Source of the DNA: a bacterium
GTDB lineage: Bacteria > SM23-31
Assembly (NCBI GenBank): GCA_965249485.1
Contig: CBDFMG010000005.1
Coordinates: 97,337 to 161,336, forward strand
Direction: 5' to 3'
Length of the DNA stretch: 64,000 nt
The notes under the pieces were generated by a model. The model made no database searches. It was not told the origin of the DNA and saw only the letters and a program-made list of their open reading frames with translations. Positions 14,928-50,381 of this stretch are shown piece by piece. Made by a program: the position numbers and the translations under genes. The number at the start of each line of letters is the position of its first letter. The first letter of the stretch is position 1.

Positions 14928-17846
14928 CTACAGGACACCGCGCTCTTCTAACTCTGCACTTATCTTTGCATGATCCTTGCTCATTATATCGTCTGAAAGC
15001 ATTGCAAGCAGTTTGGTGTCAGTCATCTCGCTAAAGTCAATGTCACTGTCTATGACTGGTCTTTCTGTCTTCTGCATTTCTGATCCGTCGTCAGCAGTTT
15101 TCTCTATCTTTGCGTCTACATCATCATCACCTGCTTCTGGTACTGCGTCATCACCTTCCTCTTTTTTCACGTCATGGTTTTTCTGCATCTTTGCGTCTGC
15201 GCCTCCTATAAGATCCTCGTCTTTCATTGTAGGATCCATCCTCTCGTCATAGACCACCAGAATTCCCTGTTTTTTCGTAAAATGTCTGTCGCCGCTTCCG
15301 TCAACTGAACCCCTCTTGTATTGCACCTCCATCGTCTCCCTTCGCACTGCCTTTTTCATTATCATGTTTGTGATTGCGTTGTGTACCTTGTTTTTTGAGA
15401 CGTTTATGCCGAGTTTTTTGATTATTTCTTCGTCATCTATCTTGTGCCCTGCACCCTTTTGTATGATCTCAAAAATACTGTACTCCAGATCATTCATGTA
15501 GGGCCCACTCTTCCCACGAACTGTGTTTGTCTGAGCTTCGCCTTCTGCCTCCATCTCTGCTCTGGTCTTTACAATGCATGGTTCCGGATCAGTCCCAGTA
15601 GCGGTAAATGACTCCTCAATGTTTTTGGATTTTGCAGTCTTGTTTGCAGATTCCAGCTGGGCAATATCCGTACTTGTTCTTACTGGTTTCTTTGTGTTTT
15701 TTTCCTCCTCTGTCATCTTCAGCACAGAGTCTATGCCGCGCACCTTCACCTTGGACAATATCTCGTTGTATGTGTCTGGCATCTTTTGCTTTCCCTGTAT
15801 CACACTGACGTGGTTAATGACGTCCATGTACATCCCCTTTGGATTCGGATGTTTTTTGTAGATTGCAGCCTCCAGCTTTTTCCTGTGATTCTCCCCAAAG
15901 CAGACAAACCACACCATGTAGCCTGCCTCAAAATTTTTAGTGTAGTTCTGCACTGCCTGCTTTATGTGCTTTGTGGGGCCTGTCTCCACCTCTATTGCAA
16001 GCTTGTTGTTGTCATTCCAGTGGAATGGATCATACGTCTCAAGCCCATCCTTGTCCTTTAGCACCTTTGGCTCTATTACCAAAAGATCTGCCGCGTTCTC
16101 CGAGCTGTCACCCAGGTCAGGTATGCAGTACCTGTGCTGCTTCATGTTCAGATCCATGAGACCAAACATGATTGCCAAGTGCACCTCGCCCCCAGCTCTC
16201 CTTCCAGCGGCAGACTGCGAAAGATACGTGCTGTACGTCTTTGAGCTGACAACATATCGCTTCATTGTCTCATTCTCGTCCCCGTCATCGGTGCCAGGAT
16301 ACATTATCTTGATGTACCTTTTTCTCACAAGACTGTCAAGTGCAACTGATATCGGCTTTTCCTTCAGACTGGGAAAGATAATCTGGACTCTTGTAAATAT
16401 CTCATTGCGGTACCAGTCTCTCTGATCAAAATGCATCAGGTGAATTATGGAACACTCCAGAGGGTTGAACAGAAGCTTGCCAAGGTTCTGCGTAGGCGCA
16501 TACTTTTCTATGGATACGTCCTTTCCCCATCTCTTTAGCGATTCCCTTGCAACGTCCTTCCACTCCGATACTCTTCTTCCAGGAAGCGGGACAGGCCTTG
16601 CACGGAATGTGGCACTTGCGCCGACCCCTGACTCGTCAGTGGACATGACAAACGTGTGGTTTGGAAGCCTCTGCATCTGGTCTGCTGTCACAGATATCTG
16701 GCTATTCAAAAGGCTTGCAGTGTTAAAATCGCATTTTCCAGTCATTACGGTCTTGCATGTTCCGGGTATCTCGTCGGCAAAGGTCTTGTCATATGCATTG
16801 CATGTCTGCGTTGCCAGCGTGACCTTTATGCCGAACTTTCTTAGTGCCCTAAGCATCTCAGACATTGTCATGTTTGAGAACATGTGAGCCTCATCAACGT
16901 ACACGTAAAAAGGGTTCTTTCTTATCTCGGAAAGATCCTCGTCCAGGATGTCCATTCTTCGCTTTGCCTCAACATGCAGCATGTTCAGAAATATCGAGCC
17001 AAGAAACTTTGCAATGTCATCGCTTGCACCAGTAGACAGGTCAACTACGAGGATCTTTTTCTCGCTGATTACCTCACTGATATCAATGCTGGACTCCGTG
17101 CAGTCAAACATTGCAGCGACAGTAGGCGTCGCAAGAATCTTGTCTATCTTGTTGTATGCTGAGCTTCCGGCATCCTTTGAGTACTGCTTGTGAAATATCT
17201 CCCGCCAGAAGTGCTTGACGCCCGGCGATGCGACATTTTCAAGTATCTCTTCTCTTGATGACTCGTCAGTAATCATAGATGAGATAAACCCAAGGGAGTT
17301 GTATCCCTTTGACTCGACTAGCGCGTTTGCGGCATTTCGCAGTACGGTCTCAAGTCTTGGACCCCATGAGCCCATGTACAAATTGTACAATGTATTGACA
17401 AATGTCATCACCACCACATACCTCTCGTTCTCACTTTTCACCTCAAGCGGGTTTACCTGTACTGTCTTTCCAAACCTGTAAAGCGTTGCCGGATTCACGT
17501 AGATGACGTCCTTCCATCTCTCCTTTGGTATCATGGACATGATGTCCCTTGCAAGCTCGCCGTGCGGATCAATTATCATGACCCCCTGCTTTCTCATTAT
17601 GTTCTGGTATGCAAGCAGTTTGAGAATTGATGATTTTCCGCATCCCGGAAAACCAAATATTGCCATATGTCCCCGCTCAGTCGAGGTGATTCCAAATGCC
17701 CTGTTTCCCCCAACAACAACGGCATCAGGATCATCATGTTTGAATCCGACAAAGTCAATGTTTGACTTTTCCCATGATGACTCTTTTGACGGCTCTGTTG
17801 CCTCTATCTCTTTCTTTTTTTTCCAGAACATTTTATCAGCCGCCAC
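14928..17846 (-). CDS. Large P-loop ATPase of the HerA/FtsK/VirD4 superfamily, coupling-protein-like, with a C-terminal winged helix and acidic tail
   Basis: Walker A FGFPGCGKSS. It is followed about 25 aa later by IIDPHGE, compare DPKGE in VirD4 and DphGEY in HerA. Walker B VYVDEAH. 972 aa, no TM segment. Overlaps the upstream membrane-protein gene by 11 nt. Confidence 0.55.
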   Translation of the reverse strand: MAADKMFWKKKKEIEATEPSKESSWEKSNIDFVGFKHDDPDAVVVGGNRAFGITSTERGHMAIFGFPGCGKSSILKLLAYQNIMRKQGVMIIDPHGELARDIMSMIPKERWKDVIYVNPATLYRFGKTVQVNPLEVKSENERYVVVMTFVNTLYNLYMGSWGPRLETVLRNAANALVESKGYNSLGFISSMITDESSREEILENVASPGVKHFWREIFHKQYSKDAGSSAYNKIDKILATPTVAAMFDCTESSIDISEVISEKKILVVDLSTGASDDIAKFLGSIFLNMLHVEAKRRMDILDEDLSEIRKNPFYVYVDEAHMFSNMTMSEMLRALRKFGIKVTLATQTCNAYDKTFADEIPGTCKTVMTGKCDFNTASLLNSQISVTADQMQRLPNHTFVMSTDESGVGASATFRARPVPLPGRRVSEWKDVARESLKRWGKDVSIEKYAPTQNLGKLLFNPLECSIIHLMHFDQRDWYRNEIFTRVQIIFPSLKEKPISVALDSLVRKRYIKIMYPGTDDGDENETMKRYVVSSKTYSTYLSQSAAGRRAGGEVHLAIMFGLMDLNMKQHRYCIPDLGDSSENAADLLVIEPKVLKDKDGLETYDPFHWNDNNKLAIEVETGPTKHIKQAVQNYTKNFEAGYMVWFVCFGENHRKKLEAAIYKKHPNPKGMYMDVINHVSVIQGKQKMPDTYNEILSKVKVRGIDSVLKMTEEEKNTKKPVRTSTDIAQLESANKTAKSKNIEESFTATGTDPEPCIVKTRAEMEAEGEAQTNTVRGKSGPYMNDLEYSIFEIIQKGAGHKIDDEEIIKKLGINVSKNKVHNAITNMIMKKAVRRETMEVQYKRGSVDGSGDRHFTKKQGILVVYDERMDPTMKDEDLIGGADAKMQKNHDVKKEEGDDAVPEAGDDDVDAKIEKTADDGSEMQKTERPVIDSDIDFSEMTDTKLLAMLSDDIMSKDHAKISAELEERGVL

Positions 17847-19710
17847 CTCCCCCGAGATTGAACATCTTGATTACTATTGGTATTGCATACATTGCAATCA
17901 TCGTGTTCACTGATACAATGATTACCGGAGCCGTATCCTTTACGGTGTATGAGACAATCTTTGCGGCTACAAATCCTGTGGGAATTACTGCAAGTGCAGC
18001 CATCACCTCTATACCGTCGATATATCTCTCGTCAATTGCCCCCATTGACGAGAGAAACGGAATGTTTACGTCGCTGGGTATATCCGGTCCGCCTGCAAAC
18101 ATGGATATCATCATGTGTGATATTCCAAGCATCAGAAAAGGGCTGGCATATACTATCATGCTCATTGAGCGCAGTCCCTTGCTTACGCGCTCCTTTGTCT
18201 CATGTACGGATATGACAAACTCTGTAATCGTGTTAAAGTTCTCAGTGGAGCCCCCGCCGCTCCTGTACGTCTTTGCAAGAAGAAACATGATGAACTTTAC
18301 GTGGATTGACTCAAAGGCCATCTTTGAAACTGCGATATCAAATGTCTCACCCTTCTTGATTTTGGCAGCAATACTGTCGATAATTCTGTTGAACTGCTTC
18401 TTGTACGAGTGGTTTTTTGCCTGCCTCTGTATTATCTGTCCGATGTTTTCACCGGTCTTTGACATATCTGTGACGTCCCGCATGAACTCTGGAAGCATCG
18501 AGTCTATCACCCTTATCTCTGTGAGCTTGTTTCTTACCATCATAGTATTGACTACAGCCCCGATTAGAAATCCGCTGACAATAGTCGTTGCAAGATCAAC
18601 TCCTGCAAAATATACAATGACTGCTACCATGATTCCCGCAATAGGGCTGATTGGCGTTATCTTTATCTGGTTTCCGGTAATCGGCTGGTTGGTGTTGAGT
18701 ATTATTACCATAAGCAGCGCAATGAATGGCGACATGACTGTTCCTAAAAGAAGCATGGTGCCTGTCGTCTCAGATGTCCCAATCATTCCCGATGCCATGA
18801 TCATCAATGGCATGATAATTGAGACCATCAGTACTGCTGAGAATATCTCTTGTGCGCTCTTTTCATACCTATCCCAGGAGTCCCTGTACAGATGGAAAAA
18901 CTGCTTTGCCTTCTCTGAGGTGTAGCTTGGAACATCGCCAATGCTTGCAATCTTTGCAAGGTATCCGGAGATGAAGTTCCTGAACACCTCTGAGGGGTGC
19001 GATTCAGCATACACACTAAGTGACTCGTTTTGTGTAACGCCGATCATGTCAACGCGCTTTACTATCTCCCCTGCATCCTGCGCAATTGCATTAAACACCC
19101 TTACGCCACGAATGTCCTTAAATGAGTGATACAGCCCCCGCCCTATTGTCTGCATGATATTGACATAGCACAAAAAGTACGCCATCTCTTCCTCTATTCT
19201 TGACTTGCGTTCTACTATGGTCAGTCTTAGCTGAATGTATGGAGACATATAGATAATTGCAGGTACGGCACAAACTACCAGAAATATCTCGCTTGCAGTA
19301 ATTCCAAGATAAATTCCAATGACAGTTGTGGGGACAAACACTGTAACTGCAATGCGTGTCATGGTTGTTGCCATTTTTTCTGCGTCATAGTTTTTACCTG
19401 TCTTTGGAATCTGCGCCAGTATCTGACGCTCGTTGAACACCCGAAGACGTACCAAGTATTTCAGCTTTGATTCCAGAAACACAAATATCTTTTCAAGCGA
19501 TGTCTGCTTGTACTTGTAAATCCATATTGTCCCGTCTGATGATCTTGCAGACAGTTTTGGCTTTCTAAAAAGTGGTGAGAAGAGGGACACTATGCAACAG
19601 GCAACAAGAAACCCTGACAGCATCACATAATCAAAGCCGCCGTCAGAAAACAGCACGACACACCACAGCAGACTGAAAAAGAATCCAGATACGACAAGAT
19701 GGGTCTTCAT
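17836..19710 (-). CDS. Polytopic membrane protein, TadC/FlaJ/GspF-like (two repeated cytoplasmic-domain plus TM modules)
   Basis: 624 aa with at least 8 predicted TM helices. Internal duplication of a soluble domain followed by TM triplets is the GspF architecture. Translationally coupled to the ATPase gene. Confidence 0.4.
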   Translation of the reverse strand: MKTHLVVSGFFFSLLWCVVLFSDGGFDYVMLSGFLVACCIVSLFSPLFRKPKLSARSSDGTIWIYKYKQTSLEKIFVFLESKLKYLVRLRVFNERQILAQIPKTGKNYDAEKMATTMTRIAVTVFVPTTVIGIYLGITASEIFLVVCAVPAIIYMSPYIQLRLTIVERKSRIEEEMAYFLCYVNIMQTIGRGLYHSFKDIRGVRVFNAIAQDAGEIVKRVDMIGVTQNESLSVYAESHPSEVFRNFISGYLAKIASIGDVPSYTSEKAKQFFHLYRDSWDRYEKSAQEIFSAVLMVSIIMPLMIMASGMIGTSETTGTMLLLGTVMSPFIALLMVIILNTNQPITGNQIKITPISPIAGIMVAVIVYFAGVDLATTIVSGFLIGAVVNTMMVRNKLTEIRVIDSMLPEFMRDVTDMSKTGENIGQIIQRQAKNHSYKKQFNRIIDSIAAKIKKGETFDIAVSKMAFESIHVKFIMFLLAKTYRSGGGSTENFNTITEFVISVHETKERVSKGLRSMSMIVYASPFLMLGISHMMISMFAGGPDIPSDVNIPFLSSMGAIDERYIDGIEVMAALAVIPTGFVAAKIVSYTVKDTAPVIIVSVNTMIAMYAIPIVIKMFNLGGGGG

Positions 19711-29480: not shown

Positions 29481-29595
29481 CAGAATATCCTGCTTCCAAT
29501 TCTGCTTGATTTTTCAAAGCACCTGTCTTGCAGACAGATGATTACGTTTTCTAGCATATCTGCAAAAAGGAAGACTGTATTTAAGGGGAATTCCT

Positions 29596-29601
29596 GTTAA
29601 A
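29596..29601 (+). promoter_or_regulatory. TATA box (ttaaat) about 25 nt upstream of the chimeric ORF start
   Basis: The promoter region is a duplicate of the TBP promoter and is spaced as in archaeal leaderless promoters. Confidence 0.35.
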
Positions 29602-29615
29602 TTGTAATCGTATTT

Positions 29616-30629
29616 TTGTATTTGATGAAAGTCGAACTGCAGATTGAAAACGTGGTGACAAAGACAGAGTGCTGCAAGACTTTTGATGTTGACGCGCTGG
29701 TAAAGTACAATGGGGCGTTTCGTGACATAGGTTTTCCTCCTGCAAAGTTTCGCTTCATGCGTCCCAAAAAACAAGTTACAGTCAACGTGTACAAGACAGG
29801 AAAGATAATCTGTCTTGGTGCAAAGTCAATAGAGAGGGCAATAGAGTACACAGAACGCATCATGAAAAAGCTTGACATTACGGACTCGTCAGAGATCACA
29901 GTAACGCGTGTAATGATGTCCGGACACTTTGTTGAAAAGGTGAACGTCTATAATGCAATACCTCTGATTGAAAAGGCAAGCAGATTCATAGGAATTGACT
30001 GCAACACAACAGGTCATGCTGCAGTAGTTGCCATACCTCATACAGGCAAAATACACAAGCTTGGAAAATCAGCCATTCATACGCATTCAAAATACAAGGC
30101 AGTTAGAAAGAAACTGCAAAGACAAGGAAAATTCTCACTGCTTAAAAAAATAAAAAACAAGGAATCAAGAATTGTAAAAAACATCAATCACCACGTTTCA
30201 AAAAAGATTGTCTCAAAGAATCAGGGAATCGTTTTGGAAAACATCAAGGGAATCAGAAAACTCTACAGAAAGGGAAACGGTCAAGGAAAAAAATATCGTG
30301 GAAGAATGAACTCCTGGAGCTACTACGAGCTACAGCGACAGATAGAGTATAAAGCTAAATGGGCTGGACTTCCAGTCCGATATGTAAGGGCAGTAGGAAC
30401 ATCATCAAAATGTGCGGTATGTGGAGTCAAGCTAATCTCCGAAGAGCACAGAAAGATGTGGTGTCCTAGTTGCAGAAATGTAGTTGATAGGGATATCAAC
30501 GCAGCCAAAAATATCTTGGCTAGAGGGATGAGGTTCGTCCCCGACGGGTCACAAGTTGAAGCGGTGAAGCAGTCAAAAGATGCAGAGCAGATTGTGGTCA
30601 GTAAGTCTCCAATGATTCTCTACAATTGA
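29616..30629 (+). CDS. Chimeric ORF joining TBP N-terminal repeat 1 (~122 aa) to the C-terminal two-thirds of an IS605-family TnpB (RuvC-I to RuvC-III plus zinc finger)
   Basis: Residues 1-122 are identical to the TBP gene at 31398-31943. They are followed by FIGIDCNTTGHAAVV (RuvC-I GID), a zinc finger CAVCG...CPSCRN, and RuvC-III VVDRDINAAKNI. The N-terminal WED/REC part of TnpB is absent. The start is TTG in the ORF track, and an in-frame ATG follows 3 codons later. Confidence 0.55.
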   Translation: MYLMKVELQIENVVTKTECCKTFDVDALVKYNGAFRDIGFPPAKFRFMRPKKQVTVNVYKTGKIICLGAKSIERAIEYTERIMKKLDITDSSEITVTRVMMSGHFVEKVNVYNAIPLIEKASRFIGIDCNTTGHAAVVAIPHTGKIHKLGKSAIHTHSKYKAVRKKLQRQGKFSLLKKIKNKESRIVKNINHHVSKKIVSKNQGIVLENIKGIRKLYRKGNGQGKKYRGRMNSWSYYELQRQIEYKAKWAGLPVRYVRAVGTSSKCAVCGVKLISEEHRKMWCPSCRNVVDRDINAAKNILARGMRFVPDGSQVEAVKQSKDAEQIVVSKSPMILYN

Positions 30630-30671
30630 AGGATCTGACGAAGACTTTACAGAACCAAAAATAGATGTCAA

Positions 30672-31304
30672 CTACCCTGGCCTGACACGTACAGTGTATG
30701 CATCGGAGATTAGAGTGTCCTCACCAGATTCAAACTGAAGCTTCAGGGTTAACCTGTCAGAGATGTTTACTACCTTGCTGATGTCTGGACTGGTTGTTTC
30801 TGTAACTTCAATTTTGAACGCATTGGTTCTGCCGCCTTCAAGTACAGACTCTGTCACTGTACCTACCGCATCACCAACAGAGAATCCTTTGAAAGTTCCA
30901 ATCCCTAAAGCAGCAGTACAACCGGTGAAAGTGGCAGCGCATCGGTTGGATGAAGCAGTGCCGTCTGTCAAAGTCAGAATTCCGGTATCGGCATCCTGTA
31001 TGATTCTCAAATCAGACACACTGATACTGTCAATGTAGATCTCAGAAACGGTTATCTGGCCGATGTTCTTGATTGCTCCGGTAATGCTTAGCGTGTCCCC
31101 GTCAAGCAGTGCGCTGAGTGTGGTAACTGTAATTCCACTGTTTGACAGGAATGGATCTGCCTGCTCCTGGAAAATAAAGTATAATCCGCTACCGGCAGCA
31201 GCAGTGACTCCCAATGTGATAATCGTTCCAAATATTGCAGACAGTGCAGCTTTCTTTGTTCGTGCTAGATGTCGTTTTCGTTGTTTATCATTCTCAATAT
31301 TCAT
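30672..31304 (-). CDS. Secreted or membrane-anchored hypothetical protein
   Basis: N-terminal basic stretch followed by the hydrophobic segment LSAIFGTIITLGVTAAAGSGLYFIF. 210 aa. Confidence 0.4.
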   Translation of the reverse strand: MNIENDKQRKRHLARTKKAALSAIFGTIITLGVTAAAGSGLYFIFQEQADPFLSNSGITVTTLSALLDGDTLSITGAIKNIGQITVSEIYIDSISVSDLRIIQDADTGILTLTDGTASSNRCAATFTGCTAALGIGTFKGFSVGDAVGTVTESVLEGGRTNAFKIEVTETTSPDISKVVNISDRLTLKLQFESGEDTLISDAYTVRVRPG

Positions 31305-31397
31305 TGATTTGAAATATTTAGAACTATTTAAGCACCGTGAGCGGGAAATTCCAACCCTAAACGGTGTGGGCTTTCTCGCCCTGATACTGTAAAAAAT

Positions 31398-31943
31398 TCA
31401 TGAGTTTGCACGAAGAATTATGCCATACAGCTCGTCAACTGCACTGCGAATCGCCTCCTCATCAGGTCCGCTACAACTTATCTTTATTGGCTCGACTGTA
31501 GCAAATATGTGCGTTGAGGTATTTCTTCCAGTAATGACTATTGCCTGAAACGCCTCGGTGTCAACTACCACATTATATCTTGCCTTTTCAATCAGAGGTA
31601 TTGCGTTATAGACGTTCACCTTTTCAACAAAGTGTCCGGACATCATTACACGCGTTACTGTGATCTCTGACGAGTCCGTAATGTCAAGCTTTTTCATGAT
31701 GCGTTCTGTGTACTCTATTGCCCTCTCTATTGACTTTGCACCAAGACAGATTATCTTTCCTGTCTTGTACACGTTGACTGTAACTTGTTTTTTGGGACGC
31801 ATGAAGCGAAACTTTGCAGGAGGAAAACCTATGTCACGAAACGCCCCATTGTACTTTACCAGCGCGTCAACATCAAAAGTCTTGCAGCACTCTGTCTTTG
31901 TCACCACGTTTTCAATCTGCAGTTCGACTTTCATCAAATACAA
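31398..31943 (-). CDS. tbp: TATA-box-binding protein (TBP), about 180 aa with two repeats
   Basis: Repeat 1 reads ...QIENVVTKTECCKTFDVDALVKY...PKKQVTVNVYKTGKIICLGAKSIERAIEYTERIMKKL, the TBP pattern N-VV-x-L-D-L ... T-x-LIF-SGK-xVCTGAKS. A shorter second repeat is present. The size is archaeal. The true start is probably the ATG 3 codons inside the TTG-start ORF. Confidence 0.7.
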   Translation of the reverse strand: MYLMKVELQIENVVTKTECCKTFDVDALVKYNGAFRDIGFPPAKFRFMRPKKQVTVNVYKTGKIICLGAKSIERAIEYTERIMKKLDITDSSEITVTRVMMSGHFVEKVNVYNAIPLIEKARYNVVVDTEAFQAIVITGRNTSTHIFATVEPIKISCSGPDEEAIRSAVDELYGIILRANS

Positions 31944-31956
31944 AAATACGATTACA

Positions 31957-31962
31957 ATTTAA
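31957..31962 (-). promoter_or_regulatory. TATA box of tbp (ttaaat on the coding strand)
   Basis: Located about -28 from the ATG. A type-1 hairpin repeat (31966-32016) sits immediately upstream. Confidence 0.4.
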
Positions 31963-32046
31963 CGCTAACTGCCACCGTACAAGTACGGCGGTCTTCTCGC
32001 CGTGTGATTATAATTTCCCCTTAAATACAGTCTTCCTTTTTGTAGA

Positions 32047-32413
32047 TATGCTAGAAAAACGCAAAGAAGAATCAGATAGTATTGGAAAATACCAGGGCAT
32101 ACTTACCAGTGTAGTAATTGCTGCAATGATCATGTGGATTGCACCGATAATGATTCCGTATCTAGTCGGCCTTGAAGGCGAAGACGTAGACGGAAACCAG
32201 CTGTCTGGTGAAGATCTGTTGTTTGCGCCACCTTCAGATTCAGAGCTTCCCGAGGAGATATCTGACAGGATAAGCGGGCTGTTTGGAATCCTGATGTGGT
32301 TTGCAAGAATCGTTCTGATCTTTGGTGTCATAATTGCAGTAATCATACTGCGTATAAGACAAACAGAACCCCAGAACATGCCGATCGCTTTAAACGAAAA
32401 GTGCCTGTGTTGA
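32047..32413 (+). CDS. Small two-helix membrane protein, VirB2/TrbC-pilin-like in topology
   Basis: About 120 aa starting MLEKRKEE... Two hydrophobic helices are separated by an acidic loop. The gene lies just upstream of a VirB3-like and a VirB4-like gene. Confidence 0.35.
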
Positions 32414-32820
32414 ATAGCATATACCATTTTTTTATCATCGGGTTCACAGCATCGTTCATACTGTTTGCAAGTGTCATTTTTTCTGATCAGATAAAGCCCT
32501 ACGAGGGCGCAATGATTGCAGCAGGCATTGTGGCGTACAGCGTGTCATTTTATCTTGATGTAAAATCCACTTGGAGGTTTGGCAGAAGGCGCGTGGCCAC
32601 TATGGAGTCCTCACCGGTTTTTCGAATTATGATAAAAAGGTACGGGTTTGCATCAGCAGTACTCGTCCAGATTGCGACAGAGGCAGGTCTTGCATTTGTC
32701 ATTGTTCCATACTTTGTAGGATACAGTCTTGATGTGATGATATCTTCTGTATCGCTGTTTCTGTTTGGTGTGATGCACATTGTCGGGTTTAGCTCCAACC
32801 GCGTCCTGATAAAAAAATGA
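32400..32820 (+). CDS. Small polytopic membrane protein in a VirB3-like position
   Basis: Start uncertain (GTG/TTG near 32400). Three to four TM helices. Lies between the VirB2-like and VirB4-like genes. Confidence 0.3.
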
Positions 32821-32857
32821 GGTTCTGTTGGGTATCCACAGAAGACACAACAGGACC

Positions 32858-32942
32858 ATATGTTGACCTTTGTGCAAATTTGCACAGAGGTTCTGTCAAC
32901 TGAGACTCGGCATTTGAGTCCGCCAAAGGCGCAGCAGAACTT
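32858..32942 (+). repeat. Type-2 dispersed repeat (~85 bp), copy a of 4, all in the same orientation
   Basis: Consensus CCTTTGTGCAAATTTGCACAGAGGTTCTGTCAACTGAGACTCGGCATTTGAGTCCGCCAAAGGCGCAGCAGAA. It contains the perfect 16-bp palindrome TGTGCAAATTTGCACA. Other copies are at about 39238-39300, 41176-41215 (partial) and 44541-44625. Confidence 0.8.
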
Positions 32943-33030
32943 CCGATGACAGAACTTAGTTTATCATCACACGGCGAGAAGACCGCCGTACAAGTACGGT
33001 GGCAGTTCACAGAACAGCTGACCCTTTTAA

Positions 33031-34956
33031 GTGAACTGGCAATCTCAAGTCGTGTTAGGTATTACAAAGAAAAAGTCAAAAAAGCCTGCAACGCCAAAGC
33101 CAAAGAAAAAAAATGACGTCTCATATGGAATAAGCCCCACAAACTATCTTATCCTATCACCGGACGAAAAGACGCAGGTGCTGCGTTCGTTCATCAACGT
33201 CATACGTTCCATTGAAAAAAAATTACAGATTACAATTGTAAACCAGACAATCCACACAACCTTTGCCGGAAAGGATTATGACTATGTTGAAAAGATGGCG
33301 TACTTTACGTCAAGGCAGGATCTCGGCGTTGCGCTGCTTGGTACGGGGTTCAAGTCGACAAGGCAGGACGAGCCGATTGCATTCAAAGTTGCAAAGGAGA
33401 AAAGATCACATCTTGAGATGGTTGATGGGACATTCTGGAGGACGTATGTCATTTATGATTTCTCAAGAAAAATAGAGCCGGCATGGGTCAACCAGCTCTC
33501 TGCAATATGCGATATGACAAATGTGAGCATATCCCCTATGAAGGTAAGCTCTGCAAAGCGCATGCTCGTAACGCATGCAAACACCCTGGAATCCACAACA
33601 GGAAAGAGACAGCACCAGGAGGCGGCAGATGCAAGGGAGGTTGTAGACATGCTGGTAAAGAACCAGACGTCAGTTTACGAGTGTGGGATCACGGCAGTAG
33701 TCACTGCCACTAGCAGAAAGGAGCTAAAGTCAAGATGCAGGGAGTTTGAGAGAAACGCAAAGATGAGACAGATAAAGTTTCTTGCCGTAAACAGCAAGCA
33801 GAAAGACACCCTTGATGGCTGGGGGCACAAGTTCCTCTTTGAGGAGATGTCATGCTCTGTGTTTTATCCGTTCGAATCCTCAGACATGATAGAGGCAGAC
33901 GGTGCAGGTGGCGTGTACATTGGCACAAACGAGCTTACCGGCACCCCTGTAATCTATGACTACCTGAACAGGACAAACTACAACATGACGATTCTGGGAT
34001 CATCGGGGTTCGGAAAGTCAGTTGCAGCAAAGACATACATTGATAATTTTTATGCCATGATTGCAGAAAAGTACGGACCAGACCAAAAGATAATGTCGTA
34101 CATCCTGGACCTGCACGGGGAATATGTGGAGCTTGCAGGCTATCTGAAAATGGACGTGATGGACCTGATGGGACGTGGAGAGATGGGCCTTGATCCGTTT
34201 ACGCTTCTGGAGTCAAGTGACATGGCAGTTGACTTGATTACAGATGTGGCAAACATGCCACCAGAACTCAAATCACTTACGCTTTCAATGGCAGGCGGTG
34301 TGAGGTCAATCTCAGAGATGGTACGCAGACTTGAAAACGACTCCACTGACAATGCCGAGGACTGCCGAAAGGCGTCAACTTACCTGCTGCAGTTCGTAAA
34401 GGGCGGTCTTGCAAAGATGTTTGGCGGTGAGATGAAGATCAAAGACCGAACAATAATTGCAATGAGAAAGGCAACAGAATCCGACATCAACTCAATGCTG
34501 ATTGCACTGACCATGCAAAAGATATGGATGGACATAATAAGCGCGCCAAGACACGTGTCAAAGCTGCTAGTTATTGAGGAGGCGTGGTTCGTACTGCGCC
34601 TGCCCTCAACTGCTGCAATACTTTCAAACATTGCACGTTCTGGAAGAAAAGAAAACCTGCATCTCATAGTGATGACTCATGACATTGATGATTTTCTACA
34701 AAACGAGTACGGCGCGGCTATCCTCAAAAACTCTGCTACCGTGTTTCTGCTGGGACTAAAGGCATCAACTGCAAAGACACTCCAGGAGGTGCTTGACCTG
34801 TCTGACAATGAAAGAGACGAAATAACATACCTTGACAAGGGACAGGCAATAATGCGTGCAGACAGAAACCGAGTGAAGCTAAAGGTAAAGCCCACTCCAG
34901 AGCAGCTAAAGATATTCAATACGGCAGCATCAGGCTTTGTGCCCACGGGTGACTGA
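33031..34956 (+). CDS. VirB4/TrbE/CedB-like conjugation/secretion ATPase
   Basis: Walker A ILGSSGFGKS. DLHGEY follows about 30 aa later. Walker B LLVIEEAWFVL is the VirB4-family DEAW-type motif. Followed by ARSGRKENLHLIVMTHD. 641 aa. Confidence 0.65.
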   Translation: MNWQSQVVLGITKKKSKKPATPKPKKKNDVSYGISPTNYLILSPDEKTQVLRSFINVIRSIEKKLQITIVNQTIHTTFAGKDYDYVEKMAYFTSRQDLGVALLGTGFKSTRQDEPIAFKVAKEKRSHLEMVDGTFWRTYVIYDFSRKIEPAWVNQLSAICDMTNVSISPMKVSSAKRMLVTHANTLESTTGKRQHQEAADAREVVDMLVKNQTSVYECGITAVVTATSRKELKSRCREFERNAKMRQIKFLAVNSKQKDTLDGWGHKFLFEEMSCSVFYPFESSDMIEADGAGGVYIGTNELTGTPVIYDYLNRTNYNMTILGSSGFGKSVAAKTYIDNFYAMIAEKYGPDQKIMSYILDLHGEYVELAGYLKMDVMDLMGRGEMGLDPFTLLESSDMAVDLITDVANMPPELKSLTLSMAGGVRSISEMVRRLENDSTDNAEDCRKASTYLLQFVKGGLAKMFGGEMKIKDRTIIAMRKATESDINSMLIALTMQKIWMDIISAPRHVSKLLVIEEAWFVLRLPSTAAILSNIARSGRKENLHLIVMTHDIDDFLQNEYGAAILKNSATVFLLGLKASTAKTLQEVLDLSDNERDEITYLDKGQAIMRADRNRVKLKVKPTPEQLKIFNTAASGFVPTGD

Positions 34957-35133
34957 GGAAGAGGGTTCCGTACTTGTACGGTGGCCTTCTCGCCGTGTGA
35001 TTATAATTTACAAAAAATTGTACGGATTTCATCAAAAACAGACAAAAATGACACCGATATTCGCATTTCAAGTGACCCCAAATTTTTTGACTTTTCTGAA
35101 AAATGGGCAAAAATTTTGGCACTAGGCGTGGCT

Positions 35134-35177: not shown

Positions 35178-35370
35178 GAATTTCGCTATTAAAAACTTGG
35201 AAAAACAGAGAAATTTGTCTCCAAAATAGTAAAAGCATTCCAGTATAAATAAGTTTGGTTCTGGGTAATCTGGGCTCTGTCAAGTTAGCGGGTGTTAGCT
35301 AGAAATTTTATCCGTGTCAAGTGTCGGGTGTTTTAGTTCTTAAAATCAACCCTGTATGATGACATAATAC

Positions 35371-35457
35371 GCAGAGAGTGGGATTCGAACCCACGGTTCG
35401 GTAAAGAACTGATGCTCAAGAGACAACCACTCTAGACCTTACTAAGCAATCTCTGCA
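35371..35457 (-). tRNA. tRNA gene of ~87 nt with no encoded CCA; long variable arm or intron; anticodon not resolved
   Basis: Reverse complement reads GCAGAGA...GTGGGTTCGAATCCCAC TCTCTGC. That gives a perfect 7-bp acceptor stem and a canonical T-arm (GTGGG-TTCGAAT-CCCAC). A GTTC/GAAC extra stem fits a class-II variable arm. I could not fold the D and anticodon arms by eye. Confidence 0.6.
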
Positions 35458-35812
35458 TAAGTCCCAAAAATCATAATGCAATATAAAATACAATGTCCTA
35501 GTGGGATTCTTTACCTTTTTGCCTTCCCAACTAGAACGTTACTGTCTAATCGTGATTTGCAAGGGCACGACACACAAGACAGAATACCAAGAATCGAGGC
35601 ATTTTATATTCAAAAAATTCACATATAACTTTACCGTGCTGGAAATTACTGTAACATACTGTACGGTTCTGTAAAGTCTTCGTTTGTCATGAACCTGAAA
35701 CTATCAAAGACATCTCTTAGCTCGTCTTTTTTGTCGTGGAACTGCCAGACGCACTTTACTTGTTTCTCTAGTTGTTGTTGCTGCTCTTGTTTTTCTAGAT
35801 TCTTGAGGTGGC

Positions 35813-36031
35813 TCATTTGTTTTCAGTCTCTTTGATCCATTTTTTAGTCGCTTCGCGGATGTTGCGTTTTTTTGTGTCCACTTTCAACGGGATATAGATT
35901 CCATTGTCTGTGACGACGAGATCCAAAGAGTCTCCACGTTTAATGTTGTAGTTGTCCCGGATTACTCTTGGCAACAACAGAGCATGGGAATTTCCAACTT
36001 TCAGGACACTACTAGACAAAATAAGTGGCAT
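35813..36031 (-). CDS. AbrB/MazE/SpoVT-family swapped-hairpin DNA-binding protein
   Basis: LKVGNSHALLLPRVIRDNYNIKRGDSLDLVVTDNGIYI matches the AbrB/MazE pattern. The stop overlaps the ATG of a downstream 57-aa ORF (ATGA). Confidence 0.5.
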   Translation of the reverse strand: MPLILSSSVLKVGNSHALLLPRVIRDNYNIKRGDSLDLVVTDNGIYIPLKVDTKKRNIREATKKWIKETENK

Positions 36032-36120: not shown

Positions 36121-37320
36121 ATGATAAGAATCAGAAAAGACGAGTACATTCGAAGGAGATACGACGCCAAAATAAAGGGGTATGGTGACGGCACGTTGTT
36201 TCTTACAAACAAGCGACTTTGCTTCGAGTCCTCAAAGCACGGCGTATGCTTTAATCTGGAGCTGGCTCACATCTGGGATTGGCTGGCAAAAAAGAAAAAG
36301 ATCCGCATAAGATGGCAAGAGCTATATCCGGGTCAGTCTCAAATTCCATTTGATTCAGAGATTTTTTCAGTTGACATTGAACTCATAAAGAAAAACGGCT
36401 ACAGGGCAGATCCAGAAGAGGTTCACTTTGCATTGTTTTACGCTTACACTGACGAGATGAAGTACGGCTATGATGGTCTTGGTTGGCATGTTAATGAGAA
36501 AAGAGAGTTGCATCACAGATACGATTTGACGCCACAAAAGTACAAAACAAGTGGAATGCGAGAAGTCATGGAAGTTAAGCAATGGCAAGTAGACATCTTA
36601 GAGGAGCAGGAACTGCTAAAGGCGGCAGGCATTGATGAAAAACAAAGATATGAACTGCTCGGAGATTTTGTGGCGTATGGAGATGAATGGGTAGAGTTCT
36701 TCAAGAAAAACACTGGCAAGACACAGCTCGAGCAAGACATCTTCATCAGAGTAGTGAATAGAAAAGCTTGGCAAAAAGATGGTATTTTTGATAAGGTCTA
36801 TGGATTGAAAACAAAAGAGCAAATAGAAAAAAGACTGAAAAACAGATCTGAAAGCACATCTCACGACGAAAACACAATTAAGCATTTAAAACAAGACATC
36901 GCAAAGTATGAAAAGGAAAACAACACCGAGAAACTCACCGAGGTCTTTCCACCAAGCCACGCAAAGCCTGGCGAGCAACCTGTAAGATATATGAACGTCT
37001 TTGGTGCTGATGATTGTCAAGTCCATTCCAGCAACCCAAGACAACACATTCCAAATCTAGGTGGAACTCGACATGACATGGTAAAAAATTTGACACGCAG
37101 ATTGCCTGTATGGAAGCGACTGGAGGAAATATTGACTCCAATGAGATTCGAGTTTCATTCTCAATATGAGGAAGTGAGATTTGCAGTAACTATGAAGCTC
37201 TTAGAAAAAATTGAGAAGGGCGAGGATATTTCAAACTATGTGCCAAAAGTAGAATTGCCAGAATCAAAGACAATTTGGGCTGAAAAACACATTACAGAAT
37301 ACATTCAAAAAGCATCATAA
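36121..37320 (+). CDS. Hypothetical protein
   Basis: 399-aa soluble ORF with no motif I recognise. Embedded in the T4SS-like region. Confidence 0.4.
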   Translation: MIRIRKDEYIRRRYDAKIKGYGDGTLFLTNKRLCFESSKHGVCFNLELAHIWDWLAKKKKIRIRWQELYPGQSQIPFDSEIFSVDIELIKKNGYRADPEEVHFALFYAYTDEMKYGYDGLGWHVNEKRELHHRYDLTPQKYKTSGMREVMEVKQWQVDILEEQELLKAAGIDEKQRYELLGDFVAYGDEWVEFFKKNTGKTQLEQDIFIRVVNRKAWQKDGIFDKVYGLKTKEQIEKRLKNRSESTSHDENTIKHLKQDIAKYEKENNTEKLTEVFPPSHAKPGEQPVRYMNVFGADDCQVHSSNPRQHIPNLGGTRHDMVKNLTRRLPVWKRLEEILTPMRFEFHSQYEEVRFAVTMKLLEKIEKGEDISNYVPKVELPESKTIWAEKHITEYIQKAS

Positions 37321-40401: not shown

Positions 40402-40557
40402 ATGCCAAATTTTAGTGACATTCAGAAAGAAATTGAACACGAAGATATTCCCACCAAGTATATTATGACAGGTGAAGAAAAAAAGAAGTTGAAAAAATCA
40501 GTAGAAAAGAGCCTAAAACAAAACAAGCTAGTCTATGAAATGCTTCATGACCTTTAA
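40402..40557 (+). CDS. Putative Phd-like antitoxin
   Basis: 51-aa ORF MPNFSDIQKEIEHEDIPTKY... ending about 20 nt inside the Doc-family gene. Too short for the ORF track. Confidence 0.3.
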   Translation: MPNFSDIQKEIEHEDIPTKYIMTGEEKKKLKKSVEKSLKQNKLVYEMLHDL

Positions 40558-41176
40558 TGTCATAACATCTGATGAAATTATTTTCATTCATGAAATAATT
40601 GAAAAGAACTTTGGGTTGCCTAAAGGGCATATCAAAGTTGGCGACTTGGAAACATTACTTGAAAAAAGCAATGGCGTACCATTTTCAGAAAACCGTTATG
40701 ATTTGTTCATGCAAGCGTCAATTATTTTTGAAGGAATAGCAAGACTGCATATTTTTACAGACGGAAACAAAAGAACTGCATTAGAAGCAACAAGACAGTT
40801 TCTAAGTCAGAACAACCACGTTTTTATCATTCCACTAAGTGGAACCAATTTCATATACAATGTGGCAAGGAATGAAACCCATGATACTGACGGGTTAGTA
40901 TCTGACATTTCTGTATGGGTAAAAACGCATTCAGCAAAAATAAGTGAACGGTATAAAATTGCAGGTTTGCTGTTTTTACATCTTCTGCTGCCTTTGAAAC
41001 TGGTTAATTTTTTCTCAAAGATAAAACTAAATCGAATCAGCAGGTGGATACTATACAGATATTTAGAAAACGAGGATCCAAAAATAACAGAGCTCATGTT
41101 TTCAATCTATGAAAAACAGCTCGGTCTTTTTCAACCATCAGCAAAAGGGCATGAAAAACAAGACAAGACACCTTAG
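40535..41176 (+). CDS. Doc/Fic-family toxin
   Basis: HIFTDGNKRTALEA matches the Doc motif HxFx(D/N)GNKR. Confidence 0.6.
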   Translation: MKCFMTFNVITSDEIIFIHEIIEKNFGLPKGHIKVGDLETLLEKSNGVPFSENRYDLFMQASIIFEGIARLHIFTDGNKRTALEATRQFLSQNNHVFIIPLSGTNFIYNVARNETHDTDGLVSDISVWVKTHSAKISERYKIAGLLFLHLLLPLKLVNFFSKIKLNRISRWILYRYLENEDPKITELMFSIYEKQLGLFQPSAKGHEKQDKTP

Positions 41177-42834: not shown

Positions 42835-43098
42835 TTGGATCAGAACATTTTGTATTATTTTATGAATAGGAATTGGAAAAAATACAACACATCACTAGTT
42901 AGACGTGGGGAAATCATGCTCTCCTTTGATGCCGTGGAACAGTGGGGTACAGAACTCAAGGAGATGAACCACAAAAAGGAAGGACGTCAGTATATCTATC
43001 CTGAATCCTTCATGGAGGCACTAGGGGAAGTGACGCTTGTGGAGAGTGCAAAGCATTCAATGAAACAGGAAGAGGCCACCGTACTTGTACGGTGGTAG
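42835..43098 (+). pseudogene. N-terminal fragment of an IS5-family transposase, truncated by a type-1 hairpin repeat
   Basis: ...SFDAVEQWGTELKEMNHKKEGRQYIYPESFMEALG matches the N-terminal region of ORF 11239-12075. The reading frame runs into the repeat (ccaccgtacttgtacggtgg) and stops. Confidence 0.5.
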
Positions 43099-43099
43099 T

Positions 43100-44428
43100 T
43101 CACTCTTCACCTTTACCACCAGCAGCACCGCCGTCTTTCTCAGGACTGGACATAGCGCTACCCTCGTGCGCCGTTATTCCGCCTTTGATGCCACCAGACA
43201 CGCTGCCCTTGAACCCACCTTTTGCGTAACCCTGTATTGCGCCCTTTCCTGCCATGGCAGTGATGAATAACGCCGTAGTTACTGCCGATGTCATCACCTG
43301 CATTGTAGATCCTACAACTGATGAGAGCAGTGGCACCATTAGCATCGGAATGGATACTGCAAAAAATACCACGCCAAGCGATGCAATCCAGACATATATC
43401 AGAGTGGTGTCAAAGCCTGCAATTATCTCACCTGTGTTTGCAGTGCCTGCCGATGCGATAAAGCTCGCACCGACACTGATTACAATTGCAGAGACCAGCG
43501 GTATGAGGTACAGTCCCGGCAGTGCCTGCAGGAACTTTGCGACGATTTTGTCAAAGCGCGGAATCAGCGACAGTGCCAGGAACAGCGGCAGTGACACAAT
43601 CACCATCGCAGTCAGCATGTCAGTCATCATGCTGATTATCATGGACAGCAGTGAAACGTTGATCACTATTATTGCCTGTGCAAACCCGAAAAACGTGTCT
43701 GCCAGCACGTTTGTAAACGCGCCGGATATCTGATTGGTGATCCATTCCAGCGTGTTTGCGCCCTCGGGCAGTTCATATGATGCGGTGCCTGCCATCTGCT
43801 GTATGACATAGTGGACCTTAAAGTCAGGCCTGCACACTATCTCTGCCTTTTTGATGTCGGTTCCAAAAAAGTCATACGCCGTTCCGTCCTTGTCATACTT
43901 TGAGTCGTTGTATTCGCGGATTATTTTTTGATCAGACCAGTCATCAGGACACGGCGAGTCGGGGTCGTATGAATAGTTCGGGTTTAGCACCCATACTGCT
44001 GCAATCTCCATTCCGTCAGCTACTGCATCCCATATGAATGGAAACAGCGCAATCAGAAATATGATCATGACACATCTTGAGATTAGCTTTCCTCCCAGCC
44101 CCTTTTGTACGGTTGAGACTTCGGACTGCTCAAAAAATTTCAGCAGTACTGCAACTACGACGACCACTGCAATCAGGATCAGTGCCAGAAATCGCATCTG
44201 CGTGAATGTCTCAAATATGTAGTTTCCATGCTCTGTGCCGTCATTTTGTATGGAATACTCAAAGACCGGCAGTGTGATCAGCTGAAGCGTGTACGCGCTG
44301 TCCATCATGTCGCCTATGTCGTTTGCAATATTGGAAAAGGTAATCTGTATGAGTATTATGGCAAGTATGGTTACTGCAGCGTCTATCAGCTCTGTGATGA
44401 TTGCCGGGTGTTGTTTTTTCAACAACAC
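43100..44428 (-). CDS. VirB6/TrbL-like polytopic membrane protein, paralog of 37339-39372
   Basis: 442 aa with multiple TM helices. Shares conserved blocks with 37339-39372. Lys/Gly-rich tail. Confidence 0.45.
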   Translation of the reverse strand: MLLKKQHPAIITELIDAAVTILAIILIQITFSNIANDIGDMMDSAYTLQLITLPVFEYSIQNDGTEHGNYIFETFTQMRFLALILIAVVVVVAVLLKFFEQSEVSTVQKGLGGKLISRCVMIIFLIALFPFIWDAVADGMEIAAVWVLNPNYSYDPDSPCPDDWSDQKIIREYNDSKYDKDGTAYDFFGTDIKKAEIVCRPDFKVHYVIQQMAGTASYELPEGANTLEWITNQISGAFTNVLADTFFGFAQAIIVINVSLLSMIISMMTDMLTAMVIVSLPLFLALSLIPRFDKIVAKFLQALPGLYLIPLVSAIVISVGASFIASAGTANTGEIIAGFDTTLIYVWIASLGVVFFAVSIPMLMVPLLSSVVGSTMQVMTSAVTTALFITAMAGKGAIQGYAKGGFKGSVSGGIKGGITAHEGSAMSSPEKDGGAAGGKGEE

Positions 44429-44658
44429 CCAAGGCAGTATTCATTATAAGGAGCGTGGATTTCTCAAAGAGGATTCCGTGAACTGCCGCCGTACAAGTAC
44501 GGCGGCCTTCTCGCCGTGTGATTATAAATTGTCATCCTGCATGTTGGCCTTTGTGCAAATTTGCACAGAGGTTCTGTCAACTGAGACTCGGCATTTGAGT
44601 CCGCCAAAGGCGCAGCAGAATCCAGGGGCCTTATAAACAACTACACATCTGATGGGTA

Positions 44659-46155
44659 TTGTTTGGATGGAAGAAATCAGAAAAAGAAGAGTCCGTAAAG
44701 TACAAGCTATCGCACATGGATGTTGACGTTACAGGGCTTGACATAGTGGAGGAATACAAGGTAGGCAAGGTAAAAGTCTACATCACGTCAGACTCAAGAT
44801 ACCTGGTAAAAGAGCCGCCTATAGGCGACTCTGCAGTGAATTTGTACAATACCATCATCGACAAAATTAACATGGGAGTCGAGCTAACAGACGCGGATAA
44901 GGACCCCAAAGTTCTTGCCGACAAGCTGGAAAAGGCATTTTGGGATACTGCAAAGAGACTTGAAAGGTATGACGAGGCGACACGGATGTTTCCTGACCTG
45001 ACGTACTACATTCACCGCGAGATGCTAGGTTATGGGATTATTGATCCGCTGATGAAGGATCCTGCAATCGAGGATATCCTGTGCTCTGCATACGACAGAA
45101 ACGTCCGCGTGATACACAAAAGATATTCCGGCATTCACCACAGCCTTGAGACAAACATTGCATTTGAGAGCGTCACTGAGATGGAGAGGTTCATCCAGAA
45201 GGTGTATAGTAAGACAGGTACGGAGCCCACAGAATCAAGACCGATGTCTGTCACACACATGGCAGACGGCTCCAGAATCTCTGCCACCTTTGGAAAACAG
45301 GTGACACAGCCTGGCCCGATAATTGCGATACGAAAGTTTCCAACAGAGCCGTTTACGATAACCGACATGCTAAAGACAGGGCACCTGTCATCTCAGATGG
45401 CAGCATACATCTGGACTATGCTTGATGCAAAGGCAGTGGGGCTGGTAATCGGTGTCACAGGATCCGGCAAGACTACCCTGCTTTCTGCGTTTGTATCGAT
45501 GATGAACCCGGGGTGGAGGATACTCACAATTGAGGATACGCTGGAACTGCAGATACCGCATGAGGACTGGGTTAGGGCAAACACCAGAAAAAGCTACGGA
45601 ATGCTTTCAGAGAAATTCGACATACCCATCAGAAGCCTGATTGACATGTCACTTACACAGAGGCCGGACTACGAGATTGTCGGCGAAATCAGACTGGATG
45701 ACATGGATGCGCTGTTTCAGAGTGTCGGCACCGGACACGGCGGGTTGACAAGCTTTCACGCATCAACCCCAGGGGGCGCACTGACTCGAATGAGGGGAAA
45801 CAAGATCAGCGAAGGCGAGCTTGCACTGCTGTGGTTTACGGTGCACTCTGCCAGCATAACAAGGGACGGAGTCGACACAAGAAAGGTGACAGATATCTCA
45901 GAGATAGTGCCAGACGAGATGACCGGCACAGTTGCAGTTAATAACATATTCAAGTATGATATTTTTAAGGACAAGTTTGTGCAGAACCAGTCACTTGAGG
46001 AATCATACAGATACCAGGAGGCCTTGCAGATATGCGGAATCCTAGATCCAAAAGAAGACATGAAAAAAAGAATAGCCCTCCTTGAGCAGTGTGTCAGCAA
46101 GGACGTCTCTGACGTGCACAAGGTCTTTGAGATTCTTAGAAGATATTACGAATGA
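44659..46155 (+). CDS. VirB11/FlaI/GspE-family secretion ATPase
   Basis: Walker A GVTGSGKTTLL. Asp box ILTIEDTLEL. His-box-like RPDYEIVGEIR. 498 aa. Confidence 0.7.
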   Translation: MFGWKKSEKEESVKYKLSHMDVDVTGLDIVEEYKVGKVKVYITSDSRYLVKEPPIGDSAVNLYNTIIDKINMGVELTDADKDPKVLADKLEKAFWDTAKRLERYDEATRMFPDLTYYIHREMLGYGIIDPLMKDPAIEDILCSAYDRNVRVIHKRYSGIHHSLETNIAFESVTEMERFIQKVYSKTGTEPTESRPMSVTHMADGSRISATFGKQVTQPGPIIAIRKFPTEPFTITDMLKTGHLSSQMAAYIWTMLDAKAVGLVIGVTGSGKTTLLSAFVSMMNPGWRILTIEDTLELQIPHEDWVRANTRKSYGMLSEKFDIPIRSLIDMSLTQRPDYEIVGEIRLDDMDALFQSVGTGHGGLTSFHASTPGGALTRMRGNKISEGELALLWFTVHSASITRDGVDTRKVTDISEIVPDEMTGTVAVNNIFKYDIFKDKFVQNQSLEESYRYQEALQICGILDPKEDMKKRIALLEQCVSKDVSDVHKVFEILRRYYE

Positions 46156-48465: not shown

Positions 48466-49143
48466 ACAATCAAATCATCAACATGTATTAGCAACCAAAT
48501 ATTGCTGCACACGTGCAGGTTCATCATCCAGAATGCGAAGCACCATTCCGTATCTGTTGGAGTTTTTCTCATATACGATAGTGATTCTCTCCCTGCCAAA
48601 AACGGTACAGGACAGTACAGAATCAGCATTTAGCAACACTGTCTCCATTCCGGAAATCTCTACTTTGATGATGCCATTCTCATCAATGTCAAGCATCCCT
48701 TTTTTTCCATATAATGAAACCGAAAAAGATTCCATACCAGAGATTGACAGATATTATTTAACGCTGTGAGCGGGGGTTCTGTCAAGTTCTAGTCACCTGA
48801 AGTGTGGATCTTCTCCGTGTTAAGAGTCGTCACCTAATCTGAGATATCATTGCAAAACTATCATTTGAAATTAAGGTGCCTGGCACCCCCCTGTCCAAAG
48901 TGTTCAAACCATGCGACAAAAGGAAGACTAAACTTCCAGTGGTGTGTCAGGCATGTTTGTATTGTAATACGCATATAATACGGTTATGCTGCATCATCGT
49001 CAGAAATATCTCTTAATTTTGTAATACCACGGCGAGAAGGCCACCGTACTTGTACGGCGGCAGTTCACTACATCTTCCTCAGACATGTTTTTCTCATTCA
49101 TAATCCGTGCGACATGCCCTGATACCTGTAAGATTCAACCGTC

Positions 49144-50232: not shown

Positions 50233-50381
50233 ACTAATAGAGTGAATATTTTAATTTCCATGAATCAGGAAGCCAACGACTTTATCATTTTTTATAATCA
50301 CACGGCGAGAAGGCCACCGTACTTGTACGGTGGTGGTTCACTGTATCGTTTTTTTAAATTTAAAGTCATGATAAAATGGTT

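Follow-up and report, generated by a model that had tools for sequence, protein, structure and literature searches.

A TBP-TnpB chimeric reading frame on a Nitrosopumilus conjugative element: a young two-step patchwork and probable pseudogene

The window analysed in this work is a stretch of 64,000 nucleotides of contig CBDFMG010000005.1 (positions 97,337 to 161,336 of the forward strand), and all positions below are counted from its first letter. On its forward strand, at 29625..30629, lies an open reading frame (ORF) of 334 amino acids that joins the first part of a TATA-binding protein (TBP) to the nuclease half of TnpB, a protein of insertion sequences (IS) of the IS200/IS605 type. Its TBP part consists of repeat 1 and the first strand and helix of repeat 2 (S1' and H1'); RuvC-I comes from one tnpB gene, called here tnpB-A, and RuvC-II, the zinc finger and RuvC-III come from another, tnpB-B. 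This ORF is very probably a young chimeric pseudogene, the scar of a rearrangement on an integrative conjugative element of Nitrosopumilus, and it probably has no selected function. A reading made from the sequence alone had left a choice between such a scar and a domesticated TnpB nuclease retargeted by a DNA-binding domain. The first is borne out by microhomology at both junctions, by a nuclease half drawn from two tnpB lineages, and by two sibling copies, one truncated, the other frameshifted and partly deleted. The second has found no intact orthologue beyond near-identical elements, and no other TBP-TnpB fusion among the TBP relatives in 1.84 billion representatives.

Results

The promoter and the beginning of the TBP gene are present twice, in opposite orientations. 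A repeat search delimits two inverted arms of 385 nucleotides each, 29596-29980 and 31579-31963, separated by 1598 nucleotides; by direct count, 384 of the 385 bases are the same, so the near-identical inverted duplication described in the sequence-only reading is real. The sole mismatch is at position 29954, T in the arm of the fusion and C in the arm of the full TBP gene. Further upstream, a second inverted pair of 44 nucleotides (29547-29590 versus 32015-32058) is 98% identical, with one mismatch. The upstream homology is broken between the two pairs because the full-TBP side has about 51 nucleotides there (31964-32014), against about 5 on the fusion side. No other inverted pair longer than 47 nucleotides was found in the 8-kb neighbourhood, and the 385-nucleotide arms are therefore far beyond chance.

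Taken with its upstream piece, the left arm (29547..29980, forward strand) is a partial inverted copy of the TBP gene: it contains the 44 upstream nucleotides, a core promoter region whose TTAAATT box lies about 25 nucleotides 5' of the ATG, and codons 1-118 in ATG numbering. The right arm (31579..32058, reverse strand) is the same sequence within the complete TBP gene, together with the extra upstream nucleotides. This extra sequence, by which the two upstream regions differ, is explained by one copy of a 47-nucleotide hairpin repeat, at 31967..32013 on the forward strand.

This repeat, GTGAACTGCCRCCGTACAAGTACGGYGGYCTTCTCGCCGTGTGATKATAA, has a distribution of its own. The window contains about eight copies, apparently between the listed ORFs: 921-967, 31967-32013 and 44481-44527 on the forward strand, and 32961-33007, 34968-35009, 43079-43100, 49028-49065 and 50292-50333 on the reverse strand. 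They occur both in the GC-rich island described below and in its low-GC flank. Two more are found in a related contig, L001 (6441-6496 and 15537-15586). The hairpin stem shows compensatory variants (CCACC..GGTGG versus CCGCC..GGCGG), and two inverted copies flank a segment of 947 nucleotides, 32014-32960, that is missing from another related contig, L004. A miniature mobile element is one possible nature of these copies, a terminator-like repeat another.

Our comparators are four contigs, L001 to L004, all from one metagenome (ENA sample ERZ26167216). The base at 29954 is T in the three copies of the fusion, those of the window, L001 and L003, and the matching position is C in all three full-length copies of the TBP gene (window, L003 and L004). 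Since this copy-specific base is consistent across contigs, the duplication is ancestral to this group of elements.

Read from a TTG codon, the fusion is an ORF of 337 amino acids (29616-30629, forward strand), and the TBP gene one of 181 (31398-31943, reverse strand). In two sibling contigs, the fusion has CTG in place of the TTG at 29616; the true start is therefore the ATG at 29625, with products of 334 amino acids for the fusion and 178 for the TBP (31398-31934). Both products are also recorded by a public gene caller, and the exact 334-residue protein is present in a public protein collection. The in-frame fusion and the complete TBP gene of the sequence-only reading both stand, with their starts moved to these ATG codons.

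The complete TBP gene, 31398..31934 on the reverse strand, encodes a paralogue with a divergent second repeat. Pfam recognizes TBP at residues 8-86, and a family profile of the 178-residue protein aligns in one stretch, over positions 4-178, with both repeats of the Sulfolobus TBP 1mp9 (E=1.5e-25, a score that one canonical-looking TBP in the profile alignment may raise). As the profile spans both repeats, the protein has a complete two-repeat TBP fold. An AlphaFold model from the single sequence was unusable (pLDDT 35). Close relatives are very few, only three among 5.8 billion proteins, and searches of GTDB species genomes, JGI metagenomes and IMG/VR gave no locus of this paralogue. When the 1.84 billion representatives were searched exhaustively with HMMER, full-length relatives at 31-39% identity formed about 15 clusters, followed by canonical TBPs. 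Rare and divergent, this TBP is a paralogue that belongs to a mobile element, and not the general TBP of the host. In the loop between the arms, 3' of the TBP gene and co-directional with it, lies a gene for a protein of 210 amino acids without Pfam match (30672..31304, reverse strand), which is kept in L003.

We now turn to the junctions of the fusion. The first, from TBP to tnpB-A, lies at 29971..29981 on the forward strand and was defined by a three-way comparison of the fusion, the full TBP gene and the native tnpB-A of L004 (2381-2461). The break falls between 29980 and 29981, and adjoins a microhomology of 9 nucleotides, AAAAGGCAA, common to TBP and tnpB-A. Residues 1-121 are shared with the TBP, and codon 122 is split by the break, coding for S in the fusion and for R in the TBP; the switch that had been placed right after residue 122 is indeed in frame, but belongs inside that codon. 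The reading frame enters TnpB a few residues ahead of the RuvC-I aspartate, as had been described.

The TnpB part had been attributed to a single IS605-type TnpB. This attribution fails: the part is a hybrid of two tnpB lineages whose proteins are about 35% identical over the RuvC region, joined at 30198-30211. The best database match to the fusion, a protein of 255 amino acids (P0001), has the same TBP/TnpB junction and is essentially identical as far as the motif HHVSKKIV, beyond which it diverges; past this motif, the window is 83-97% like ordinary Nitrosopumilus-type TnpB proteins (P0002-P0004). The first piece, 29981..30197 on the forward strand, is the tnpB-A segment, with the RuvC-I strand and the helices that follow, and it has a different continuation in L001. 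Its source can be seen in L004, where an ORF of 200 amino acids (2036-2638) has a native TnpB N-terminus and then the lineage-A stretch; positions 2412-2619 of that contig are 99% identical to 29971-30178 of the window. The second piece has full-length tnpB-B counterparts in L002 and L003, respectively 91% and 97% identical to the window over 30189-30656.

The second junction (30198..30211, forward strand) lies within 14 nucleotides, TCAAAAAAGATTGT, that are identical in both parents and code for their common SKKIV motif; the junction is therefore colinear and automatically in frame. The tnpB-B segment that follows, 30212..30656 on the same strand, comprises RuvC-II, the zinc finger, RuvC-III, the stop codon at 30627-30629, and 27 more nucleotides up to a conserved right end of the IS, ...ACAGAACC. 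This terminus is conserved in six independent loci (the window, L002, L003, L006, L008 and L009) whose flanks diverge, and the B piece therefore arrived as the right end of an inserted element. An inversion between tnpB-A and an inverted tnpB-B was considered as the origin of this junction and rejected: where the reciprocal product would be expected, L003 still has an intact tnpB-B, and the window is without any 3' fragment of tnpB-A. At 35665..35845 (reverse strand), the window holds a remnant of a tnpB-B IS with an internal deletion, about 19 nucleotides of right end joined to about 166 nucleotides of 5' end, at a site where L003 has a full gene of 399 amino acids. No full-length TnpB was detected within the window, and the element is crowded with other TnpB and IS fragments.

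The sibling copies give the order of the two joins. Contig L001, at 40x coverage, is 99.5% identical to the window across 5.7 kb and has the first junction; its tnpB-A runs past the site of the second, to the motif EYKAR, and then into an ORF of tandem repeats. As L001 has junction 1 with a tnpB-A that continues past junction 2, junction 1 is the older. The L001 product has 255 amino acids, stops inside the tandem-repeat insertion, and lacks both the zinc finger and RuvC-III. The insertion itself (L001 5857-6414) is an ORF of 185 amino acids made of SRPEVKEKMREY-like repeats, which truncates the tnpB-A part and has no counterpart in the window.

Contig L003, at 2.9x coverage and 98% identical to the window across 5 kb, shares with it both arms, both junctions and the order of the genes; since it reproduces the whole architecture, this architecture is no assembly artefact. 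Its fusion copy has three lesions: a deletion of one nucleotide in a run of A (30144), a deletion of 55 nucleotides (30581-30635) that takes the stop codon, and a deletion of 12 nucleotides (30657-30668) just beyond the end of the IS. In the B segment, the fusion lineage has 3 nonsynonymous substitutions and 1 synonymous, against 1 and 5 in the lineage of the full-length tnpB-B. A look at selection on the TnpB-derived part, which the sequence-only reading had called for, thus gives a pattern that hints at relaxed selection, small numbers making it suggestive only.

The same reading had called for a search of other genomes. The fusion was found in the window, L001 and L003, and nowhere else in the collections searched; no TnpB domain was found in the longer TBP relatives detected among the 1.84 billion representatives, and 29540-32060 had no blastn match in the PLSDB plasmids. 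The fusion is limited to this one group of near-identical elements.

What the ORF of the window has retained is largely what had been described. Pfam recognizes TBP at residues 8-86 and a Cas12f1-like TNB domain at 236-300 (PF07282, E=1.9e-20). The RuvC triad D128/E208/D293 (TTG numbering) is present, in columns that are invariant or nearly so in an alignment of 16 sequences, and its placement agrees with alignments to TnpB-like chains of the PDB; present too are the four cysteines of the zinc finger, C266, C269, C283 and C286 (CxxC...CxxC). The retention of zinc finger and RuvC-III was thus correctly seen, as was the loss of the WED and REC domains, since residues 1-121 are TBP sequence. Native N-termini of TnpB are seen elsewhere, in the L004 ORF for lineage A, and in the proteins P0002 and P0025 for lineage B. 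The WED/REC half of TnpB holds the omega RNA and the duplex of guide and target, and RuvC belongs to the RNase-H-like fold class. On the TBP side, the break comes just before S2'; a two-repeat saddle is encoded by the neighbouring 178-residue gene and not by the fusion. There is no left end of an IS 5' of the ORF, the duplicated TBP promoter being there instead, and the transposable unit is incomplete.

An AlphaFold model of the fusion is informative for the RuvC/TNB half only, where residues 120-300 have pLDDT 80-92 and match Cas12f/TnpB structures. The TBP part is poorly modelled (pLDDT 21-50), because the alignment there is dominated by unrelated TnpB N-termini.

A check for an omega-RNA-like structured region downstream of 30629 had also been proposed. 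With only 27 nucleotides of IS DNA left past the stop, any scaffold would have to overlap the ORF at its 3' end. Identity at third codon positions to five other tnpB-B loci is 0.80-1.00 over 30522-30596, compared with 0.38-0.65 just upstream, which is consistent with an overlapping RNA and with a putative omega-RNA scaffold at 30522-30656. The structural measures give it no support: for the 3' regions of six tnpB-B loci, RNAalifold returns almost no covariation (a term of -0.08); folding 30500-30656 as a single sequence gives no gain in stability over shuffled sequence (z=-0.5); and an Rfam scan of the window finds tRNA only, and no omega-RNA family.

The conjugative element and its host

The fusion lies in a GC-rich island (about 45% GC) that covers roughly 16-50 kb of the window, within sequence of about 32-38% GC; the host has about 34% GC. 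The flanking gene for ribosomal protein S2 (55917-56540) clusters at 90% identity with S2 proteins of Nitrosopumilus, and the host is therefore a Nitrosopumilus-like archaeon, an oxidizer of ammonia. The island encodes ATPases like VirB4 (33031-34956), VirD4/TraG (14928-17846) and FlaI/PilT (44659-46155), and a TadC-like protein (17836-19710). Sibling elements encode a TrbL/VirB6-like protein, and insertion sequences are many. With these traits, the island fits the description of thaumarchaeal integrative-conjugative elements given by Krupovic et al. 2019 (PMC6563490). It differs from them in its TBP paralogue: all the published elements are reported to have TFIIB homologues, and TBP goes unmentioned in their description. 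As a side result, we thus have a thaumarchaeal conjugative element that encodes its own divergent TBP paralogue, where earlier surveys gave TFIIB homologues.

Other features of the neighbourhood may be noted. A gene at 36121-37320 on the forward strand encodes a protein of 399 amino acids with a GRAM/PH-like N-terminus; this 1.2-kb gene is inverted relative to conserved flanks in L003 (9391-10599, reverse strand), where it is 87% identical, and no inverted repeats flank it. A tRNA-Lys(CTT) gene of 89 nucleotides (35369-35457, reverse strand) lies within the island, between the VirB4-like gene and the tnpB remnant, and the counterpart region of L003 aligns across it; it may be cargo of the element or an old attachment site. 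At the left edge of the island are an IS5-like DDE transposase (11239-12075), an IS110 transposase (12570-13685) and a TIR-domain protein (13830-14537); further right are a Fic-domain protein (40535-41176) and a PIN-domain protein (49555-50232). These transposase, TIR, Fic and PIN loci are possible defence or toxin cargo.

Discussion

At least two steps of illegitimate recombination very probably built the ORF. In the first, some 434 bp of the element's own TBP gene, that is, promoter and codons 1-118, was copied in inverted orientation and joined, next to the 9-nucleotide microhomology, to a resident tnpB-A of the IS200/IS605 type, a few codons before the RuvC-I aspartate; the WED/REC half of tnpB-A was thereby replaced. 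Before the second, another IS, carrying tnpB-B, stood with its right end at 30656; a deletion or a template switch in the 14-nucleotide identity then joined tnpB-A to tnpB-B at homologous, in-frame positions. The sequences themselves show the mosaic, its junctions, the order of the two joins and the decay of the sibling copies; the exact molecular route is inferred, and may have been template switching during replication, or break repair. Having inherited a promoter, the ORF is probably transcribed, the activity of the promoter being probably kept. Because an incomplete TBP fold is followed by a RuvC/zinc-finger module without WED/REC, the product is most likely inactive and not under selection.

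Several observations weigh against a pseudogene. The copy of the window is an uninterrupted ORF of 334 codons, with a duplicated promoter and an intact D-E-D triad and zinc finger, and its RuvC/TNB half is modelled with confidence. The first junction is in frame, which a random join achieves one time in three, and it is common to three elements. The one-nucleotide deletion of L003 lies in a run of A on a contig of 2.9x coverage, and could be a sequencing error. No comparator is less than 97% identical to the window, and a real test of selection would need more divergence than this.

The strongest competitor built on these observations holds that the ORF encodes a functional, newly exapted protein, in which the TBP half-saddle brings a guide-independent RuvC nuclease to AT-rich, promoter-like DNA, titrates TFB or TBP partners, or acts as a dominant-negative TBP; in any of these roles it would benefit the conjugative element, for instance by exclusion or by taking over the host. 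There are monopartite TBP domains, which may be functional, and RNase HIII offers a precedent, with a single N-terminal TBP domain ahead of an RNase-H-like nuclease (PMC3597702). The likeness is one of fold order: the parts are not homologous, and RNase HIII is ancient and conserved, whereas the fusion is recent, broken within a TBP repeat, and decaying in siblings. An exapted gene should also have intact orthologues in diverged lineages, kept by purifying selection; we find three copies, no two of them less than 97% identical, and of these three, two are truncated or disrupted. Moreover, the nuclease half is stitched from lineages only about 35% identical, the TBP piece breaks within repeat 2 and not at a domain border, and the substitutions of the fusion lineage are mostly nonsynonymous. 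To our knowledge, a TnpB that lacks WED and REC has no known means to hold RNA or DNA. With no second TBP-TnpB fusion detected in the 5.8 billion proteins, in GTDB, JGI and IMG/VR, or among the 1.84 billion representatives, we judge exaptation quite improbable.

One narrower proposal, to which we give slightly less credit still, is that the intact allele of the window is an expressed newborn protein, whose single TBP domain delivers a guide-independent RuvC nuclease, or poisons TBP/TFB complexes, against competitors or the host. If it were true, the window would catch the first moments of a TnpB exaptation that drops RNA guidance.

The inverted repeat and the chimeric junctions could in principle be assembly artefacts, repeats having been collapsed or mis-joined: the window comes from a metagenomic contig of 161 kb, and its arms are almost identical, as a mis-join across a repeat could give. 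Separate contigs that have diverged by 0.5-2% nevertheless share the junctions, L001 the first, L003 both arms, both junctions and the gene order, and the base at 29954 is consistent from contig to contig; an artefact is very hard to believe in. The sequence-only reading had named two findings that would count against its fusion, an artefact at the junction and inactivating substitutions in the triad. Neither turned up, the junctions recurring in sibling contigs and D128, E208 and D293 being intact, but these two results do not discriminate between a scar and an exaptation. An intact triad and zinc finger are what is expected of fragments lately copied from active elements, and are no proof of function.

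Finally, long and nearly identical inverted repeats permit inversion by homologous recombination, and some arm variants (29897) are common within an element rather than between orthologous arms, a hint at exchange between arms. We nonetheless reject as scarcely credible a phase-variation switch, in which the arms would bound a programmed invertible segment and the 1.6-kb loop between them would be flipped. Both arms carry the same promoter and N-terminal codons, and inversion would recreate the same two genes with unchanged products. Nor is there an adjacent invertase gene, the orientation is the same in the window and in L003, and the copy-specific base at 29954 has remained linked to its own 3' partner in all the elements.

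A chimeric pseudogene remains our explanation, and it can be set beside known systems. Compared with TnpB of IS200/IS605 elements, whose relatives include ISDra2 TnpB and Cas12f, the C-terminal 215 residues of the fusion align with RuvC and TNB (PDB matches 9nzp, 8h1j and 8dzj), and the D-E-D triad, the four cysteines and the IS right end at 30656 are kept; without WED/REC, without a left end, and with a nuclease from two lineages, the fusion is not, as it is, a mobile or an RNA-guided unit. Compared with archaeal TBPs (Sulfolobus 1mp9, Pyrococcus 1pcz), residues 1-121 are those of the element's TBP paralogue, and repeat 1 matches Pfam TBP and solved TBPs; having only repeat 1 and S1'/H1', the fusion cannot form the ten-stranded saddle. 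The TldRs of Wiegand et al. (PMC10705468) are likewise derivatives of TnpB outside a functional transposon, with some link to transcription factors. They have kept the RNA-guided DNA-binding half and lost nuclease activity, and form conserved clades with guide RNAs (PMC10705468); the fusion, in contrast, keeps the nuclease residues, loses the guide-binding half and is unconserved, and so falls outside the TldRs.

Conclusions

The ORF is a cautionary case: with its promoter, its fragment of a DNA-binding protein and a nuclease whose active site is intact, it mimics an exaptation of TnpB, and it takes three sibling elements to show a decaying patchwork made in two microhomology-mediated steps. 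It also records, at base resolution, the shuffling by which pieces of insertion sequences and of resident genes come to form new reading frames on conjugative elements of archaea. From such raw material, real exaptations now and then emerge.

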